Source: a virus (lineage: Duplodnaviria; Heunggongvirae; Uroviricota; Caudoviricetes). Taken from it: a stretch of DNA of 5,061 nucleotides. The position numbers and the translations under genes were made by a program. Numbering within the stretch: position 1 is the stretch's first letter; each line of letters begins with the position of its first letter. Location: positions 1 through 5,061 of IMG/VR virus record IMGVR_UViG_3300013741_000048, one strand, 5' to 3'. Positions 1 through 5,061 of the stretch are shown piece by piece. A model generated the notes under the pieces. The model worked only from the letters and a program-made list of their open reading frames with translations, did not search any database and was not told the DNA's origin.

Positions 1-603
1 CAAAAGTGCCTGTAAGACAATAGGTTTTACCCTCTAACTCTATCGAAGCCCCTACATCAATAGGCAGCCTGGTCGCCAAACCATCCACCACCCCACTTTC
101 CAAGTCACATCCTGTGAAGTCTACTAATGCCTTATGTAGAGTTAAACTCTCATCTTCAGTAATAACCCCATCTTTAAGAATTTCCTTTACAAGTGCATAA
201 AGTTTTTTTCCTGGGTAGTTGTTCTTCAAAGCTCCATTTTGCTCAAGCCACCAATTAAGATATCTTATTTCTTCTTGAGTTAAGTTCCGATCAGCAATTA
301 ATCCTTTACATAGTCCATTAAGTAAATGGACATCTACATCCTTGGAGTAAAAATCAATTTCAGGGATATCAAGAATTTCCCTCTGTATTTGGAGAAGGCT
401 ATTTTTAAGGTCATCACGTTCTTCTGATGTGATTATTCCATCCGCAAGAATATCCGACACCCGTGCTGATAGACTTTTTATAACTCCATTATTGATAATC
501 TGCTTTGCTTCAAGTAACCATGTATCTAAGTAAAGAACCTCCTCTTCACGGACAACTCCATCTGCAANNNNNNNNNNTTAAAAGCGTAAAGCGCGTCTTC
601 CAT
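1..603 (-). CDS. Partial CDS (C-terminus beyond window start): hypothetical protein with four tandem TerB-like helical repeats followed by a BRCT-like motif; N-terminus interrupted by an N-run
   Basis: Hand translation of the minus strand gives an uninterrupted frame from 565 down to 2 (188 codons, no stop) in AT-rich DNA. It reads ADGVVREEEVLYLDTWL...ADGIITSEERDDL...ADRNLTQEEIRYL...KDGVITEDESLTLHKAL...IELEGKTYCLTGTF. Probable start is ATG at 601-603 (minus), 4 nt downstream of GGAGG (complement of 608-612), giving MEDALYAF before the gap at 568-577. It is absent from the ORF track because it has no Met and no stop inside the window. Domain names are from motif recognition, not a search. Confidence 0.6.
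568..577. other. Run of 10 N (assembly gap or masked bases) inside the N-terminal region of the minus-strand CDS
   Basis: Literal n characters. With exactly 10 bases the ATG at 601-603 is out of frame with the open frame below 565 (a TAA would be read at 578-580), so the true gap length is probably not 10. Confidence 0.95.
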
Positions 604-666
604 ACAACCTCCTTTTTTTGATAATCCTTGCACTCCTTGGCTACTCGTTCAAACCACATAAAGTTG

Positions 667-695
667 TTGACAATATTCAAAACCACAACTAAATT
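667..695 (+). promoter_or_regulatory. Candidate sigma70 promoter (TTGACA, 17-bp spacer, TAAATT) pointing toward the 68-aa ORF, flanked by direct repeats TTCAAA(A)CCACA at 648-658 and 676-687
   Basis: Perfect -35 hexamer TTGACA at 667-672, 17-nt spacer, TAAATT at 690-695 (4/6 match to TATAAT). Near-identical 11-12 nt direct repeats bracket the -35. Sequence-only prediction. Confidence 0.35.
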
Positions 696-786
696 ACAAC
701 TTAAAGATGTTAAAACAACGAACAGGCAGGACGCCCACGAAGTAGCCGCCTGGGGCATATGAAGTCCAGGATGATTCGTTAGCAAC

Positions 787-810
787 AAAAAAGCGCCCTA
801 CAGGACGCTT
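787..810 (-). terminator. Rho-independent terminator-like hairpin on the minus strand
   Basis: Plus strand reads AAAAAA GCGCCC TACA GGACGC TT. On the minus-strand transcript this is a GC-rich stem (one G-U wobble) with a 4-nt loop followed by a run of 6 U. On the plus strand the same stem has a C-A mismatch and no U-run. Confidence 0.5.
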
Positions 811-868
811 AGCTCTTTAACAATCTGGTCCCCATCAACAAGTAACTGATAACTTGAGGAGGTGTGAA

Positions 869-1075
869 ATGCACAAAACAGAACCAAAAATCGTCGCGCC
901 CGGATACACAAATGAGGAAATTTACGAGTGGATGGCAAAGAAGCTGGCAGCTATAAACCAGCTTCGTGAAGTGCTGTCTTATCGACAGGAAACAATAGAC
1001 TCCTTAAAAAAACTGGATCAGGAAATCACGGTTTTATCACAGGATGTTACTTTAGATATTGTGCAGACAAATTAG
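869..1075 (+). CDS. Small hypothetical protein (68 aa), predicted helical/coiled-coil
   Basis: ATG at 869 is 6 nt downstream of GAGGAGG (856-862); TAG stop at 1073-1075. The ORF track starts at the upstream in-frame TTG (854). Its 3' end overlaps the convergent 144-aa gene by 29 nt. No family recognised. Confidence 0.45.
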   Translation: MHKTEPKIVAPGYTNEEIYEWMAKKLAAINQLREVLSYRQETIDSLKKLDQEITVLSQDVTLDIVQTN

Positions 1076-1481
1076 GATCCCATTCATTTTCGTCAAAATC
1101 ATCAAAGTGATGAATTTGTGATCTCCAGTCTCGATAATCTAAAAATTTCTGGGCGGTTACGCTTATTTTATCAAGCATGAGTTCATCCTGAATTGAAAGA
1201 AGAAGTTCATCAAATTTCATCTCATTAATCTGTTTTGGCATCCAGTGATGCTTCATCAGAATAAGGTGAACCAGAGCTTTTTTCCCATTCAACTGATTAT
1301 AGGGAGTGCCGAATTTCTTCCGGTGCTCATGTAAGACAAGGTCCAGAAGAGTAAGTAATGTTGCCCTTGATTCAACTTTGCTTATTTCGACTGATGACAC
1401 TCCCCCACTGATTTCAATGCCCCGATACTTTCCAACATTTTCACAGTGGGATTTGTACAGCGTATAGATATTACCGGACAT
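1047..1481 (-). CDS. Hypothetical protein (144 aa), AT-rich, opposite orientation to the phage operon
   Basis: Complete ORF from ATG (complement of 1479-1481) to TAA (complement of 1047-1049), with a purine-rich stretch (AAAAGGAAAAG) just upstream. No family recognised from sequence. A weak R-x4-H motif (RSQIHH) near the C-terminus is HEPN-like but unconvincing. Confidence 0.6.
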   Translation of the reverse strand: MSGNIYTLYKSHCENVGKYRGIEISGGVSSVEISKVESRATLLTLLDLVLHEHRKKFGTPYNQLNGKKALVHLILMKHHWMPKQINEMKFDELLLSIQDELMLDKISVTAQKFLDYRDWRSQIHHFDDFDENEWDPNLSAQYLK

Positions 1482-1496
1482 TTCTTTTCCTTTTGC

Positions 1497-1544
1497 GTTG
1501 TTGGGGATAACCAGATTAACCGAATCCTTGTTGTTGGGGAATAA
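1497..1544. repeat. Two direct repeats GTTGTTGGGGA(A)TAA (1497-1510 and 1530-1544), 33 bp apart, immediately upstream of the 144-aa gene start
   Basis: Exact 14/15-nt match seen in sequence, with weaker similarity extending about 11 nt to the 3' side (CCAGATTAACC vs CTAGGTCCACC). The position fits operator or iteron-like sites in the promoter region of the minus-strand gene. Confidence 0.7.
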
Positions 1545-1765
1545 CTAGGTCCACCTCGCCTGATGTGGCTAAAAGCAGGCACATAACAGCTAAGTATTTT
1601 CAACCAGAGAGAATCCTTAGCGTTGTGGTGAATGCGGCTCAGCGCACGCGGGTTAAGGTTGAGGCTGACAGTCGACCTTCTGTGGATACCCACCCGCCTG
1701 GTGTGCAACCTTCGCCAGGCACCGGGAGGCACCCGGCACCACAACTTTATGCTGCGTGTAGTCTT

Positions 1766-1812
1766 GGCGGTACCAGCTTGTACCCTTGCTTCCGGCTGGT
1801 ACCGTCCTTTTT
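1766..1812 (+). terminator. Rho-independent terminator-like hairpin on the plus strand, upstream of yfdP
   Basis: Perfect 10-bp stem CGGTACCAGC (1768-1777) / GCTGGTACCG (1795-1804), extendable with G-U pairs, followed by C then TTTTT (1808-1812). There is no U-run on the opposite strand. Confidence 0.5.
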
Positions 1813-1901
1813 ACAAAACAGAGAAGAGCATCACCGGACGACGGGCTCATAACCCAATCCATCCGGGCGGCTGTCACCGCAGGTGTTCTTCTCTGTTTTG
1901 T
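1813..1901. repeat. Perfect 15-bp inverted repeat ACAAAACAGAGAAGA (1813-1827) / TCTTCTCTGTTTTGT (1887-1901) flanking a 59-bp GC-rich spacer
   Basis: Exact reverse-complement match read directly from the sequence. It starts right after the terminator U-tract and ends 48 nt before the yfdP start codon. Confidence 0.85.
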
Positions 1902-1949
1902 GGAGAAACCAACCGACCTTGCAGGGTCGATATGATGAGGAGCAGCAAA

Positions 1950-2312
1950 ATGGCTAGCGAACGCAGTACTGATGTGCAGGCATTTATCGGGGAGCTGGAC
2001 GGCGGCGTATTTGAAACCAAAATCGGCGCAGTTCTCAGTGAAGTCGCTTCCGGTGTGATGAACACGAAAACCAAAGGTAAGGTCTCACTCAACCTGGAAA
2101 TCGAACCATTTGATGAGAACCGTGTGAAAATCAAACACAAACTCTCATATGTTCGCCCGACTAACCGCGGGAAAATTTCCGAAGAAGACACCACCGAAAC
2201 GCCGATGTATGTCAATCGCGGTGGTCGTCTGACTATTCTGCAGGAAGACCAGGGACAATTACTGACTCTTGCCGGTGAACCTGACGGAAAACTCCGCGCA
2301 GCAGGTCATTAA
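1950..2312 (+). CDS. yfdP: YfdP-like prophage protein of unknown function (120 aa)
   Basis: ATG at 1950 is 7 nt downstream of AGGAG (1938-1942). The product MASERSTDVQAFIGELDGG... matches my recollection of E. coli CPS-53 YfdP in sequence and length. The longer track ORF (1632..2312) extends into the GC-rich island with a non-protein-like translation. Confidence 0.8.
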   Translation: MASERSTDVQAFIGELDGGVFETKIGAVLSEVASGVMNTKTKGKVSLNLEIEPFDENRVKIKHKLSYVRPTNRGKISEEDTTETPMYVNRGGRLTILQEDQGQLLTLAGEPDGKLRAAGH

Positions 2313-2377
2313 TATCGTTCTTAATTAACTGATTATTTATCTCATCACTGAATATCTTTATATAATGAGGACTTATT

Positions 2378-3202
2378 ATGTCTCAGAACTTAGACGCAAC
2401 CGCAATTAATCAAATCCATGCCCTTATTTCTGCTCAGGGTGTTAATGAAATTATCAGTAAGATTGGTGCCGATGCTGTGGCATTGCCTGAGAATTTCCGC
2501 ATTCATGATCTGGAAAAATTTAATTTAAATCGCTTCCGTTTCCGTGGTGCGCTTTCCACTGCCAGCATCGATGACTTTACCCGTTATTCTAAAGATCTTG
2601 CAGATGAAGGCACCCGCTGCTTTATCGATGCTGATAATATGCGTGCCGTCAGTGTGCTTAACCTGGGTACTATTGATGAACCAGGTCACGCCGATAACAC
2701 CGCCACTCTCAAACTGAAAAAGACAGCACCGTTCTCTGCTCTGTTGTCTGTTAATGGCGAGCGTAATTCCCAGAAGTCACTGGCAGAATGGATTGAAGAC
2801 TGGGCCGACTACCTTGTGGGCTTTGATGCTAATGGTGACGCTATTCAGGCAACAAAAGCGGCTGCGGCTGTCCGTAAAATCACGATTGAAGCAAACCAGA
2901 CCGCTGATTTTGAAGATAATGACTTCAGCGGCAAACGCTCCCTGATGGAGTCTGTCGAAGCGAAGACCAAAGACATTATGCCAGTGGCATTTGAATTTAA
3001 ATGCGTTCCGTTTGAAGGTCTGAAAGAACGTTCTTTTAAATTACGCCTCAGCATTATCACTGGCGATCGTCCTGTACTTGTTCTGCGCATTATTCAGCTG
3101 GAGGCTGTGCAGGAAGAAATGGCTAACGAATTTCGTGATCTGCTTGTTGAGAAATTCAAGGACAGCAAAGTAGAAACCTTTATTGGTACTTTCACCGCCT
3201 GA
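2378..3202 (+). CDS. yfdQ: YfdQ-like prophage protein (274 aa; DUF2303 family as recalled)
   Basis: Complete ORF with RBS GAGG (2367-2370) upstream of ATG 2378. Length and sequence match my recollection of CPS-53 YfdQ. Family assignment is from memory, not a search. Confidence 0.88.
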
Positions 3203-3214
3203 TTTGATTACTGC

Positions 3215-3236
3215 AAATGCCCCTGCGGGGGCATTT
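3215..3236 (+). terminator. Hairpin AAATGCCCC-TGC-GGGGGCATTT downstream of yfdQ; weak or bidirectional terminator-like element
   Basis: 9-bp inverted repeat with a GC core and 3-4 nt loop, followed by TTTAT. The U-tract is short, so termination is probably partial. Confidence 0.4.
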
Positions 3237-3329
3237 ATGGAAACGTAATTGACTCAATAATCGCCGGATGGTGAGGGCTTCCTTTTACCAGAATTCAGCG
3301 CGGTGCAGCGCATATACGTGGAGAACAAA

Positions 3330-3866
3330 ATGTCATTTATTAAAACTTTTTCCGGGAAGCATTTTTATTATGACAGGATAAATAAAGACGATATCGTGAT
3401 TAACGATATCGCAGTTTCCCTTTCAAATATCTGTCGCTTTGCCGGTCATCTTTCACACTTCTACAGCGTCGCCCAACATGCGGTGCTTTGCAGCCAGCTG
3501 GTGCCGCAGGAATTTGCTTTTGAAGCGTTAATGCATGATGCAACAGAAGCGTATTGTCAGGACATTCCCGCACCACTGAAACGCCTTCTTCCTGACTATA
3601 AACGGATGGAAGAAAAAATAGACGCCGTAATCCGTGAGAAATACGGGTTACCCCCGGTTATGAGTACACCCGTGAAATATGCCGATCTCATCATGCTGGC
3701 AACCGAACGCCGCGATCTCGGGCTTGATGATGGCTCTTTCTGGCCTGTACTGGAAGGCATCCCGGCAACAGAGATGTTCAACGTGATTCCACTGGCACCG
3801 GGCCATGCCTACGGGATGTTTATGGAACGCTTTAACGAATTATCGGAGTTACGCAAATGCGCATGA
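3330..3866 (+). CDS. yfdR: HD-domain phosphohydrolase, YfdR-like 5'-deoxynucleotidase (178 aa)
   Basis: ATG at 3330 is 6 nt downstream of GGAG (3320-3323); the track ORF starts at an upstream in-frame GTG (3303). The protein has H...HD spacing (SVAQHAV ... LMHDATEAY) typical of HD-domain metal-dependent phosphohydrolases. Length matches my recollection of E. coli YfdR. Confidence 0.85.
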   Translation: MSFIKTFSGKHFYYDRINKDDIVINDIAVSLSNICRFAGHLSHFYSVAQHAVLCSQLVPQEFAFEALMHDATEAYCQDIPAPLKRLLPDYKRMEEKIDAVIREKYGLPPVMSTPVKYADLIMLATERRDLGLDDGSFWPVLEGIPATEMFNVIPLAPGHAYGMFMERFNELSELRKCA

Positions 3867-4219
3867 ATGTTTTCGAAATGGAAGGGTTTCTTCGCGGGAA
3901 ATGTGTACCGCGAGATCTGAAAGTGAATGAAACGGATGCTGAATACCTGGTGCGTAAATTCGATGCGCTTGAAGCTAAATGTGCAGCACAGGAAAACAAA
4001 GTAATACCAGTGTCAACTGAACTGCCACCAGCAAATGAAAGTGTTCTGTTATTTGATGCTAATGGAGAAGGCTGGCTGATTGGCTGGCGTTCTCTCTGGT
4101 ACACCTGGGGACAAAAAGAAACCGGAGAATGGCAGTGGACATTTCAGGTCGGGGACCTTGAAAACGTCAATATCACTCACTGGGCAGTAATGCCAAAAGC
4201 ACCGGAGGCTGGAGCATAA
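3857..4219 (+). CDS. yfdS: YfdS-like phage protein (120 aa; DUF551 as recalled)
   Basis: ATG 3857 follows GGAG (3845-3848). An alternative ATG at 3863 forms an ATGA overlap with the yfdR stop (3864-3866). The C-terminal region (WQWTF...ITHWAVMPKAPE) resembles DUF551 phage proteins. Confidence 0.8.
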   Translation: MRMNVFEMEGFLRGKCVPRDLKVNETDAEYLVRKFDALEAKCAAQENKVIPVSTELPPANESVLLFDANGEGWLIGWRSLWYTWGQKETGEWQWTFQVGDLENVNITHWAVMPKAPEAGA

Positions 4220-4524
4220 TGACCACTTTTACCGACAAAGAACTGATTAAAGAAATTAAAGAGCGTATCAGCAGCCTTGACGTGCGAGACGATATTGAGC
4301 GCCGTGCTTATGAAATCGCACTCGTATCTCTGGAAGTAGAGCCAGATGAACGCGAAGCCTATGAATTATTCATGGAAAAGCGTTTCGGTGACTTAGTAGA
4401 TCGTCGGAGAGCAAAAAACGGCGATAACGAATACATGGCATGGGATATGACTCTCGGTTGGATCGTCTGGCAGCAACGAGCTGGTATCCATTTCTCAACA
4501 ATGTCACAGCAAGAGGTGAAATAA
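4219..4524 (+). CDS. yfdT: YfdT-like small phage early protein (101 aa), function unknown
   Basis: TAATG overlap with the yfdS stop (4217-4219 / 4219-4221), GGAG at 4211-4214. Length and sequence match my recollection of CPS-53 YfdT. Confidence 0.78.
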   Translation: MTTFTDKELIKEIKERISSLDVRDDIERRAYEIALVSLEVEPDEREAYELFMEKRFGDLVDRRRAKNGDNEYMAWDMTLGWIVWQQRAGIHFSTMSQQEVK

Positions 4525-4874
4525 TGGAGCCATACAGCCTCACACTCGATGAGGCCTGTCAGTTTCTTAAGATATCCAGACCAACCGCCACCAACTGGAT
4601 ACGAACAGGCCGCCTACAGGCAACACGTAAAGATCCAACCAAGCCAAAATCTCCTTACCTCACAACACGGCAAGCCTGCATTGCGGCGCTTCAGTCTCCG
4701 CTGCATACTGTCCAGGTGAGCGCGGGTGATGGCATAACAGAGGAAAGAAAATGTCACTCTTCCGCAGAGGTGAAATATGGTACGCCAGTTTCACATTGCC
4801 GAACGGTAAAAGATTTAAACAGTCTCTTGGAACAAAGGACAAAAGGCAGGCGACAGAACTCCATGACAAGCTAA
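4524..4874 (+). CDS. xis: Excisionase, P22-type Xis (116 aa)
   Basis: ATG 4524 is 7 nt downstream of GAGG (4513-4516) and overlaps the yfdT stop (TAATG). The N-terminus [26 protein letters not shown] is a typical excisionase/AlpA-type winged-helix motif. Its 3' end overlaps the integrase start. The track ORF (4440..4874) is an in-frame upstream extension overlapping yfdT and is not preferred. Confidence 0.85.
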
Positions 4875-5061
4875 AGGCTGAAGCATGGCGGGTCAGCAAA
4901 CTTGGTGAAATACCTGATATAACGTTCGAGGAAGCGTGTGTCAGGTGGCTTGAAGAGAAAGCACATAAAAAATCACTGGACGATGACAAAAGCCGGATCG
5001 GATTCTGGCTTCAACATTTCGCAGGAATGCAACTAAGAGACATTACTGAATCAAAAATTTA
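4751..5061 (+). CDS. int: Tyrosine integrase, P22/e14-type; N-terminal ~103 codons only, continues beyond window end
   Basis: ATG 4751 with GAGG at 4739-4742. The N-terminus [48 protein letters not shown]... is the characteristic arm-binding N-terminal domain of P22-family integrases (recalled). Frame is open to the last base. Confidence 0.92.

Follow-up and report, generated by a model that had tools for sequence, protein, structure and literature searches.

A conserved RNA three-way junction with a likeness to the initiator tRNA anticodon arm in the early-left leader of e14/SfV/ST64B-type lambdoid prophages

A perfect 15-bp inverted repeat in viral DNA is the lower part of the closing helix (P1) of a conserved RNA three-way junction, composed of helices P1, P2 and P3 and located at positions 1813-1901 on the + strand of the window (by which we mean the whole 5,061-nucleotide stretch analyzed here, positions 1 to 5,061 of IMG/VR record IMGVR_UViG_3300013741_000048). 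The element is a real and conserved RNA motif, carried by prophages of a very common family and apparently not described before: it has no match in Rfam 15, its core sequence was found in no searchable paper, and literature searches on ymfH, ST64B small RNAs, SfV antitermination and VapC decoys turned up no earlier description. It belongs to a known kind, as structured phage leader RNAs and tRNA mimicry in mRNA leaders have precedents, while the architecture and the use of an initiator anticodon arm are new.

The left arm of the repeat (ACAAAACAGAGAAGA) occupies 1813-1827; after 59 intervening nt, its exact reverse complement follows at 1887-1901, which is the arrangement that the original prediction from this DNA had reported. 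The match had been called far beyond chance, and none of 200 dinucleotide-preserving shuffles yielded two matches with up to 2 mismatches allowed. The position claimed for the repeat, directly after a terminator and 48 nt from the yfdP start, proved accurate as well, with the repeat beginning one base past the U-tract at 1808-1812 and ending at 1901, ahead of the ATG at 1950. According to the repeat finder, complementarity of 84% extends over arms of 25 nt (1813-1837 and 1877-1901), and the RNA helix with G:U pairs amounts to 20 bp (1813-1832 with 1882-1901). Folding of the region 1805-1950 gave -60.6 kcal/mol for the + strand (z = -5.55, equally stable shuffles 0/200) and -58.2 kcal/mol for the - strand (z = -3.95); the identical fold was recovered within a 421-nt context.

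In the folded + strand, the 5' strand of P1 (1813..1832) comprises the left arm and five more pairs, and the 3' strand (1882..1901) is the right arm extended in the same way; both are supported by the repeat finder, the fold, the shuffles and covariation. The P2 hairpin (1834..1866), flanked in the fold by the single junction adenines A1833 and A1881, is built of the stems CCGGA/UCCGG and GA/UC, an internal loop and the tip GGG-CUCAUAA-CCC. The tip itself, CGGGCUCAUAACCC (1842..1855, + strand), contains three G:C pairs closing the 7-nt loop CUCAUAA with the anticodon CAU, as seen by comparison with the tRNA gene metY. P3 (1867..1880, + strand), recognized as a variable hairpin in the alignments, measures 14 nt in the window and up to about 41 nt in relatives, frequently with a UUGCAG loop. 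The junction is in all copies followed on the same strand by a stretch that is conserved and single-stranded according to alignments and folds, GGAGAAAC(C/U)AAC (1902..1913), whose GGAGA (1902-1906) can pair with the terminator U-tract at 1808-1812, so that P1 may run on into the terminator and be lengthened. Further 3', the fold contains a small hairpin, P4 (1914..1929, + strand), of the form CGACC-UUGCAG-GGUCG with a (U/G)GCA loop. Downstream of P4 lie a Shine-Dalgarno sequence GAGGAG (1937-1942, + strand) and the yfdP start codon (ATG at 1950, + strand, with an in-frame alternative ATG at 1932). A (U/G)GCA loop in P4, with the Shine-Dalgarno sequence coming next, was present in about 100 of 129 unique copies (GGCA in 46, TGCA in 42 and GTGCAG-type loops in 14 of these 129 relatives).

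Since the arm changes in the diverged copies of ST64B and phage LLS preserve base pairs, relatives were collected in two ways. An exact core pattern from the apical region returned 120 viral contigs. A second pattern, which fixed the top of the helix alone and left the interior free and so avoided ascertainment bias for the core, was scanned against one genome per species (35 loci, of which 34 were real), metagenomes and viral contigs; this core-free anchor required the conserved top of P1, and very diverged copies fall outside the sample. All collected copies fold as one three-way junction with a long P1, a P2 with two internal loops and a variable P3, and in these folds single adenines occupy two of the junction strands. 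The element is about 90-120 nt long, and 105-133 nt in relatives, with P3 varying in length.

The species-level scan placed the element in at least 16 genera of Enterobacterales (Escherichia, Shigella, Citrobacter, Enterobacter, Klebsiella, Kosakonia, Phytobacter, Atlantibacter, Trabulsiella, Buttiauxella, Leclercia, Pseudescherichia, Pseudocitrobacter, Mixta, Erwinia and Izhakiella), and Salmonella is added through the ST64B copy. With a 98-nt query of the element, matches were obtained in 2808 of 5426 complete E. coli genomes, at 3659 places in all (median 1 and maximum 5 per genome), almost all of them chromosomal. The K-12 copy resides in prophage e14, flanked by the repressor-proximal promoter and xisE (NC_000913.3, 1201098-1201202, minus strand), and is annotated there as part of "ymfH". 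The covariance model built for the element (R1) found exactly one copy in the whole ST64B genome and no match in HK022, HK639 or CPS-53. Rfam was scanned with the entire window, and with 1800-1950 at E values up to 10; apart from an STnc100-like neighbor this gave only noise, which at 1800-1950 came from fragments of the hairpin ribozyme, from miRNA precursors and from a snoRNA. The similarity of the left arm to the hairpin ribozyme, over AACAGAGAAG, scores 14.5 bits against a gathering score of 65, and we attribute it to chance.

Covariation was assessed in an alignment of 31 diverged copies with 34 pairs. Paired cells made up 94.1% of this alignment, compared with 35-49% when the partners were slid by 1-3 columns; double-sided changes were seen in 11 of the 34 pairs, with 51 compensatory cells, and the observed pairing or covariation score was reached in 0/500 shuffles. 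A set of 16 sequences gave the same picture. Among the 31 copies, pair 18-115 is CG in 18 and GC in 13, pair 21-112 is AU in 28 and GC in 3, pair 24-109 is AU in 25 and GC in 5, and pair 35-59 is GC in 19 and AU in 8. The P3 pairs 64-67 / 99-102 show double changes too, and the lower P2 stem occurs in the compensatory variants CCAGG/CCUGG, AGCGA/UCGCU and CGGGA/UCCCG, the latter two in some Kosakonia copies. Arm position 11 (G1823-C1891 in the window) is mismatched in 25 of the 31 relatives, and the perfection of the 15 bp is, judging from the aligned copies, a peculiarity of the lineage of this window. The suggestion that the repeat would form a stem-loop as RNA is supported in a more elaborate form: the repeat is helix P1 of a junction that is conserved among relatives, shows compensatory changes and retains G:U wobbles.

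These wobbles bear on the strand. Of the 31 copies, 28 retain the U:G wobble at 28-105 and 10 have a G:U at 12-121; because these wobbles would be A:C mismatches on the other strand, they favor an RNA made from the + strand, which is the sense strand of yfdP. Open reading frames have been annotated over the region: K-12 e14 has "ymfH" there, and other genomes have a "hypothetical protein, frameshifted". At most 22 of the 31 copies keep any one frame open and the length differences are not multiples of 3, so these annotated frames are very likely spurious. The idea that the element codes for a small protein has those annotations in its favor and is scarcely credible against substitutions that preserve pairs and an NCBI pipeline that itself flags the frame over the element as frameshifted.

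The original prediction had also considered that the repeat might act as DNA, either as a site for a dimeric protein or as the ends of a miniature inverted-repeat transposable element (MITE). The existence of a perfect 15-bp inverted repeat speaks for action of this type, to which extrusion of a cruciform can be added, but we regard all of it as very improbable. Half-sites for a dimer would lie at least 59 bp apart at a variable spacing, with the spacer length changing by about 30 nt among copies, whereas the arms co-vary through pair-preserving changes and keep their G:U wobbles on one strand only. For an insertion, the element is too sparse and too settled: it is present once per prophage, with the order cI...element...early-left at every locus examined, and the search for dispersed copies that had been proposed as a check ended with the low copy numbers given above, including the one copy of ST64B. 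Its flanks (...GTCCTTTTT / ACAAAAC...GTTTTGT / GGAGAAACC, the immediate ones being CCTTTTT and GGAGAAA) contain no direct repeat that could be a target-site duplication. The arms co-vary, moreover, where sites for a transposase would be kept unchanged. Presence or absence as a clean unit, the other check, also turned out negative, as CPS-53 of K-12 (the source of the yfdP name) has yfdP with neither the leader RNA nor the element and differs over the whole upstream block, with homology beginning only about 20 nt before the ATG, which is not the trace of a clean excision.

The accompanying statement that the arms match neither integron attC sites nor REP or ERIC repeats is correct as far as tested. 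For REP, ERIC and BIME, no Rfam family matched beyond noise at E values up to 10 in 1800-1950, and the copy number is too low for families numbering in the hundreds. The arms ACAAAAC / GTTTTGT misfit the attC consensus RYYYAAC / GTTRRRY, and their context is a prophage immunity and early region. What the element has in common with MITEs, REP and ERIC is the presence of short inverted repeats in non-coding DNA; unlike them, it is undispersed, lacks a target-site duplication, has arms that co-vary and occurs in one prophage context only.

That context is a lambdoid prophage of the SfV / SfIV / ST64B / mEp460 / e14 type. DNA nearly identical to the window is found in E. coli chromosomes beside thrW-proA, and among phages Kati, SfIV, SfV, SfII and mEp460 match it at 95-99% identity and ST64B at 78%. 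The gene order in the phages is constant: cro on the opposite strand, a cI-type repressor, optional extra genes, a long non-coding leader, the element and the first early-left gene, with no N-like gene at this position in the phages examined. Nearly every locus that extends far enough has a same-strand cI-type repressor 0.8-2 kb upstream of the element and a ymfL homologue beyond. On the 3' side, the window carries yfdP, yfdQ (DUF2303), yfdR (an HD-type nucleotidase), a gene for a DUF551 protein, yfdT, excisionase and integrase. Genes of the YfdP/Q/R type follow the element, but other first genes are also found among the loci, with N-termini such as MKLPK... and MNNPF...; since the first gene differs among loci, the element travels with the promoter and leader and not with a particular gene.

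The local order is likewise fixed, running from an STnc100-like leader through an intrinsic terminator, the junction and the UGCA-loop hairpin to the first early-left gene. A promoter scan located a candidate early-left (pL-type) promoter, TTGACA-17-TAAATT, at 667..695 on the + strand (10/12 matches), which we tentatively assign to the junction-bearing transcript. Downstream of it lies a conserved 5' leader sequence, AACAGGCAGGACGCCCACGAAGTAGCC (721-747, + strand), which is also found just 3' of pL-like promoters in ST64B and K-12 e14. Inside the element, neither a scan nor inspection by eye revealed a promoter on either strand. The leader contains a structured domain resembling STnc100/PasD at 1604..1815 (+ strand), with the closing helix GUUGUGGUG...CACCACAAC and a terminator at its end. 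It matches Rfam family RF02076 at 1604-1815 with 42.8 bits (E = 5e-07), which does not reach the gathering score of 47, and SfV and ST64B give comparable sub-threshold matches.

The related prophage small RNAs STnc100 and PasD associate with Hfq (bioRxiv 10.64898/2026.05.13.724894), and their canonical copies are located in the late region, either close to Q or 3' of stx2 (bioRxiv 10.64898/2026.05.13.724894; PMC12370729). Here, the STnc100-like domain is the immediate 5' neighbor of the junction; its terminator abuts P1 and the U-tract may pair into P1, but the Rfam match stops at 1815, 3 nt into the repeat, which leaves the junction outside the family. The intrinsic terminator (1766..1812, + strand), read from the sequence and seen in the fold, has its stem at 1766-1777 / 1795-1806 and its U-tract at 1808-1812, and at least 5 T directly precede P1 in 127 of 129 unique relatives. 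As the terminator sits directly 5' of the element, only read-through transcripts would contain the junction. P1 was itself considered as an intrinsic terminator and rejected: it is followed by GGAGAAACC, with no U-tract, and the + strand terminator scan made no call there.

The P2 tip, CGGGCUCAUAACCC at 1842-1855, is identical at 14 of 14 positions to the anticodon stem-loop of E. coli initiator tRNA-fMet (C28-C41 of metY, within the compared region ...gtCGGGCTCATAACCCgaag...) and takes the same fold, thereby reproducing the anticodon stem-loop of one specific tRNA. The identical stretch includes three consecutive G:C pairs, a mark of initiator tRNAs, and the CAU anticodon. We estimated the chance of such an identity, in the same fold, to one tRNA arm at about 6e-5. 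When 12-mers of metY were searched in 2.85 Mb of loci, about 250 matches were found at each of three anticodon stem-loop offsets and at most 2 at any other offset. ARAGORN detected no tRNA or tmRNA in the window, and no Rfam tRNA match was obtained either, so it is the anticodon arm alone that is copied, with no cloverleaf. About 95 nt separate the mimic from the start codon.

Loop conservation was counted in the 34 species-level loci, which had been collected without reference to P2. CAU is kept in all 34, and the exact 13-mer GGGCUCAUAACCC is present in 20; the other loops are CUCAUUC (7 loci), UUCAUAA (2) and CUCAUUA (1), and 4 loci have only two of the G:C pairs. In 290 anchor-matching instances, which include loci first collected with the core pattern, loops other than xxCAUxx were very rare, with CUUAUAA seen once. 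On this comparison of copies, no other free part of the element is as constrained as the loop triplet and its G:C-closed stem, whereas P3 is subject to drift. A minority of copies do not match the tRNA fully: about 10% have UC and not AA at loop positions 37-38, while real tRNAs have a purine at position 37, and the defective K-12 e14 copy has UUAAUAA instead of CUCAUAA. A 7-nt U-turn loop closed by G:C is a generic stable motif, and a resemblance of this kind could be convergent or fortuitous.

Pairing partners for the loops were also sought. No complementary RNA that could form a kissing complex with the P2 loop was found in the phage genomes. The only recurrent match, of 9-10 nt inside yfdR (3656-3664), is at chance level and absent from ST64B, and pairing of the P2 loop with the start region was discarded, given that AUGAG occurs in many yfdP-type starts and not in those of other downstream genes. 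Kissing between the P3 and P4 loops was rejected too: UGCA motifs recur in both loops with no co-variation.

From the observed structure, strand, conservation, fixed position and identity to the tRNA-fMet arm, we infer a processing step, a binding partner and a regulatory outcome. Our preferred reading, to which we give about even credence, is that the element is a cis-acting post-transcriptional control module of read-through transcripts, which would govern processing and translation and present an initiator-anticodon mimic. It would be transcribed on the + strand as part of the 5' leader that precedes the early-left genes in e14/SfV/ST64B-type lambdoid prophages, and the junction would be made only by those polymerases that pass the intrinsic terminator of the STnc100-like leader RNA, about 50 nt ahead of the first early-left gene (yfdP in the window). 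P1, whose duplex measures 20-25 bp and in most copies has a central mismatch that is conserved, could absorb the terminator U-tract and serve as a processing and insulating helix. Its 20 bp, with up to 5 U:G or U:A pairs added by the U-tract, have the dimensions of an RNase III hairpin, and judging from helix geometry alone an RNase III substrate is what P1 most likely is. The hairpin of the lambda N leader and the R sites of T7 are phage RNase III sites, and P1 is like them a large, near-perfect hairpin with an internal mismatch, in the case of lambda also placed in an untranslated leader between promoter-proximal RNA signals and the first early-left gene. There is no sequence relation to either, and the three-way junction with its invariant apical hairpin is a feature for which a cleavage site has no need.

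Cleavage in P1 would part a small leader RNA from the downstream mRNA, and the latter would then start near GGAGAAAC, followed by the P4 hairpin and the Shine-Dalgarno sequence. P1 would also hold out P2, whose tip (three G:C pairs and CUCAUAA) may be read by a factor that recognizes the initiator anticodon arm; the invariance of the tip calls for a specific reader, for which the 30S P site with IF3, or MetRS, are candidates. Binding at the tip would set the translation level of the first early-left genes. The nearest analogue is the E. coli thrS operator, which imitates an anticodon arm within an mRNA leader and to which ThrRS binds. Both are leader hairpins that copy the anticodon stem-loop of one specific tRNA, but in the present case the tRNA is the initiator, the hairpin stands on a 20-bp helix, the genes controlled would be phage early genes and not a synthetase, and the likeness is known from sequence and fold. 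Against our preferred reading, the roughly 95 nt between mimic and start codon exceed the distance of the anticodon-like domain of the thrS operator from its Shine-Dalgarno sequence.

Three other accounts of the RNA compete with this control module. The element may be a structural, processing or stabilizing hairpin only in the polycistronic early-left message, for example a site for RNase III or RNase E, or an insulating hairpin that separates leader RNA from mRNA, with the tRNA likeness meaningless and P2 kept for another factor or a tertiary contact. We consider this account unlikely, if well worth retaining: the long P1 duplex with its conserved central mismatch and its resemblance to the lambda and T7 sites fit it, as do the variation of loop positions 37-38 (AA, UC, UA), the e14 copy lacking CAU and the want of a complementary partner RNA in the phage genomes. 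A mere processing helix, however, needs no invariant apical sequence, and CAU with its closing G:C pairs is kept in 34/34 species-level copies while P3 and much of P1 drift; an identity of 14/14 to one tRNA arm in the same fold is also improbable by chance. That full identity, spanning the whole anticodon loop and the A38-C39 bond, is what makes an anti-defence role conceivable, in which the P2 tip would draw an anticodon nuclease specific for tRNA-fMet and either soak up the toxin or report its activation via early-left expression. VapC/MvpT of Shigella and Salmonella cuts tRNA-fMet between A38 and C39, and the type phages SfV, SfII, SfIV and ST64B infect species whose VapC does so (PMC4105405). 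Processing of P1 could free the apical part as a small RNA, and a K-12 'ymfH' clone that spans the element, and includes the upstream leader RNA as well, triggered a retron toxin in a screen (bioRxiv 10.1101/2020.06.22.160242). We nonetheless find the decoy or sensor improbable, because a substrate that an enzyme can cleave is ill suited to inhibit it stoichiometrically, the cut site reads U37-C38 and not A37-A38 in about 10% of copies, and many of the genera that carry the element have no known link to vapBC.

The remaining account, that the nascent RNA binds RNA polymerase and renders it resistant to terminators in the early-left operon, as the put sites of HK022 and HK639 do, strikes us as quite doubtful and on a par with the decoy. 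The element shares with put its nature as a structured RNA and its position in the early-left leader of lambdoid phages with no recognizable N gene, and the adjacent stem-loops P2 and P3 loosely recall the V-shape of put RNA (PMC9378689). It differs from put in being single-copy (a second, putR-like copy is absent from ST64B, including behind pR, and from the e14 region), and in lying after and not before the only strong leader terminator; a scan of 1900-5061 also gave no convincing + strand terminators. The put RNAs comprise two stem-loops in about 70 nt, and sequence similarity to putL of either phage is lacking, with no significant BLAST match in HK022, an annotated HK639 putL that is unrelated by eye and nothing found in either by model R1. 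A 13/14 match of the arm inside the HK022 nun gene was put down to chance. Overall, we would rank translation-linked regulation, on the analogy of the thrS operator, above the plain processing hairpin, and the latter above the nuclease decoy or sensor and the put-like antiterminator. A bolder form of the proposal, that the prophage leader RNA shows a functional initiator anticodon arm on a double-stranded stalk and thereby acts either as a new type of cis-regulator (through the 30S P site with IF3, or MetRS) or as a decoy or tripwire for tRNA-fMet nucleases such as VapC, we put forward tentatively, as possible and short of probable.

About half of the complete E. coli genomes carry the element, as do converting phages of Shigella and Salmonella and prophages of many other Enterobacterales, and it has gone unannotated or been mis-annotated as a small protein, with no entry in Rfam. 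In phages that have neither an N gene nor a put site, the control of the early-left genes, including excisionase and integrase, is a question to which the element and the terminator abutting it are the obvious entry point. A functional initiator-anticodon mimic would add a new case of tRNA mimicry, either to bacterial gene control or to the arms race between phages and host defence.

Transcription of the early-left region probably begins at a strong sigma-70-like promoter in the window at 667-695 (TTGACA-17-TAAATT). It is followed by a leader sequence, AACAGGCAGGACGCCCACGAAGTAGCC (721-747), which recurs just 3' of the pL-like promoters of ST64B and of the e14 region of K-12 and is probably a conserved 5' RNA element. 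Further along, at 791-823, a hairpin (AAGCGCCCTACAGGACGCTT) is directly followed by AGCTCTTTAACAA, which matches 12 of the 13 positions of UGCUCUUUAACAA, the consensus of the ribosomal-RNA boxA antitermination sequence. Here the early-left transcript may carry a boxA site for Nus factors; on the - strand, the same hairpin reads as a terminator. Two direct repeats, GTTGTTGGGGATAAC and GTTGTTGGGGAATAAC (1496-1542), lie just 5' of the conserved CCACCTCGCCTGATGTGGCTAAAAGCAGGC, a sequence that in phage LLS is found directly 3' of the pL promoter. They may serve as operator-like sites or mark a second promoter region.

Divergent from the pL-like promoter, an ORF occupies positions 1-603 on the - strand, where relatives carry the cI repressor on the + strand. 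This ORF had no Pfam match, and ten consecutive N at 568-577 break it, with a shift of frame beyond them. At the other end of the leader, the yfdP ATG at 1950 is preceded by another in-frame ATG at 1932 (1932-1952, MMRSSKMASERS...); since the earlier ATG overlaps the presumed Shine-Dalgarno sequence of yfdP, it is uncertain where YfdP really starts.

Between yfdQ and yfdR, at 3213-3235, there is a hairpin, GCCCCTGCGGGGGC, followed by ATTTAT, that resembles P4, the small hairpin preceding the yfdP Shine-Dalgarno sequence. Some viral contigs (loci L007, L020, L101, L124, and L121) lack yfdP and yfdQ and have the leader fused directly to the GCCCCTGCGGGGGC hairpin, or have it fused to a position within yfdQ. 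Small P4-like hairpins may be recombination joints between modules. Inside yfdR, GGTTATGAG (3656-3664) is complementary to the loop region of P2, one arm of the conserved three-armed RNA junction, and in mEp460 the match extends to 10 nt. As a partner of the P2 loop it was rejected, being a chance-level match with no counterpart in ST64B.

Two metagenome hits with unexpected taxonomic labels were judged differently. The locus from a bin labelled Geobacteraceae (L147) holds a true copy of the junction beside an e14-type cI and yfdPQR, and probably comes from an enterobacterial contig that was binned wrongly; the one from a Clostridiales bin (L160) matches the anchor pattern, which fixes only the top of the P1 helix, by chance. 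In the immunity-right region (right operon) of ST64B, an isrK match above threshold (64.3 bits, gathering score 50) lies on the - strand of the locus (L003, 21-97) and overlaps the gene sb41.

The early-left leader of the window also contains an STnc100-like RNA (1604-1815), which at 42.8 bits stays below the gathering score of 47. Canonical STnc100/PasD copies have been reported near Q or downstream of stx2 (bioRxiv 10.64898/2026.05.13.724894; PMC12370729), so the family may include leader RNAs from two different phage operons. In K-12 e14, the annotated ORF ymfH (L165 5070-5381 = NC_000913.3 1201069-1201380) lies wholly within the stretch made up of the STnc100-like RNA, its terminator, the junction, and P4, and is therefore probably not real. 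One study reported that a clone of ymfH triggers the retron-Sen2 toxin RcaT (bioRxiv 10.1101/2020.06.22.160242); should this be borne out, the triggering could be an RNA effect.
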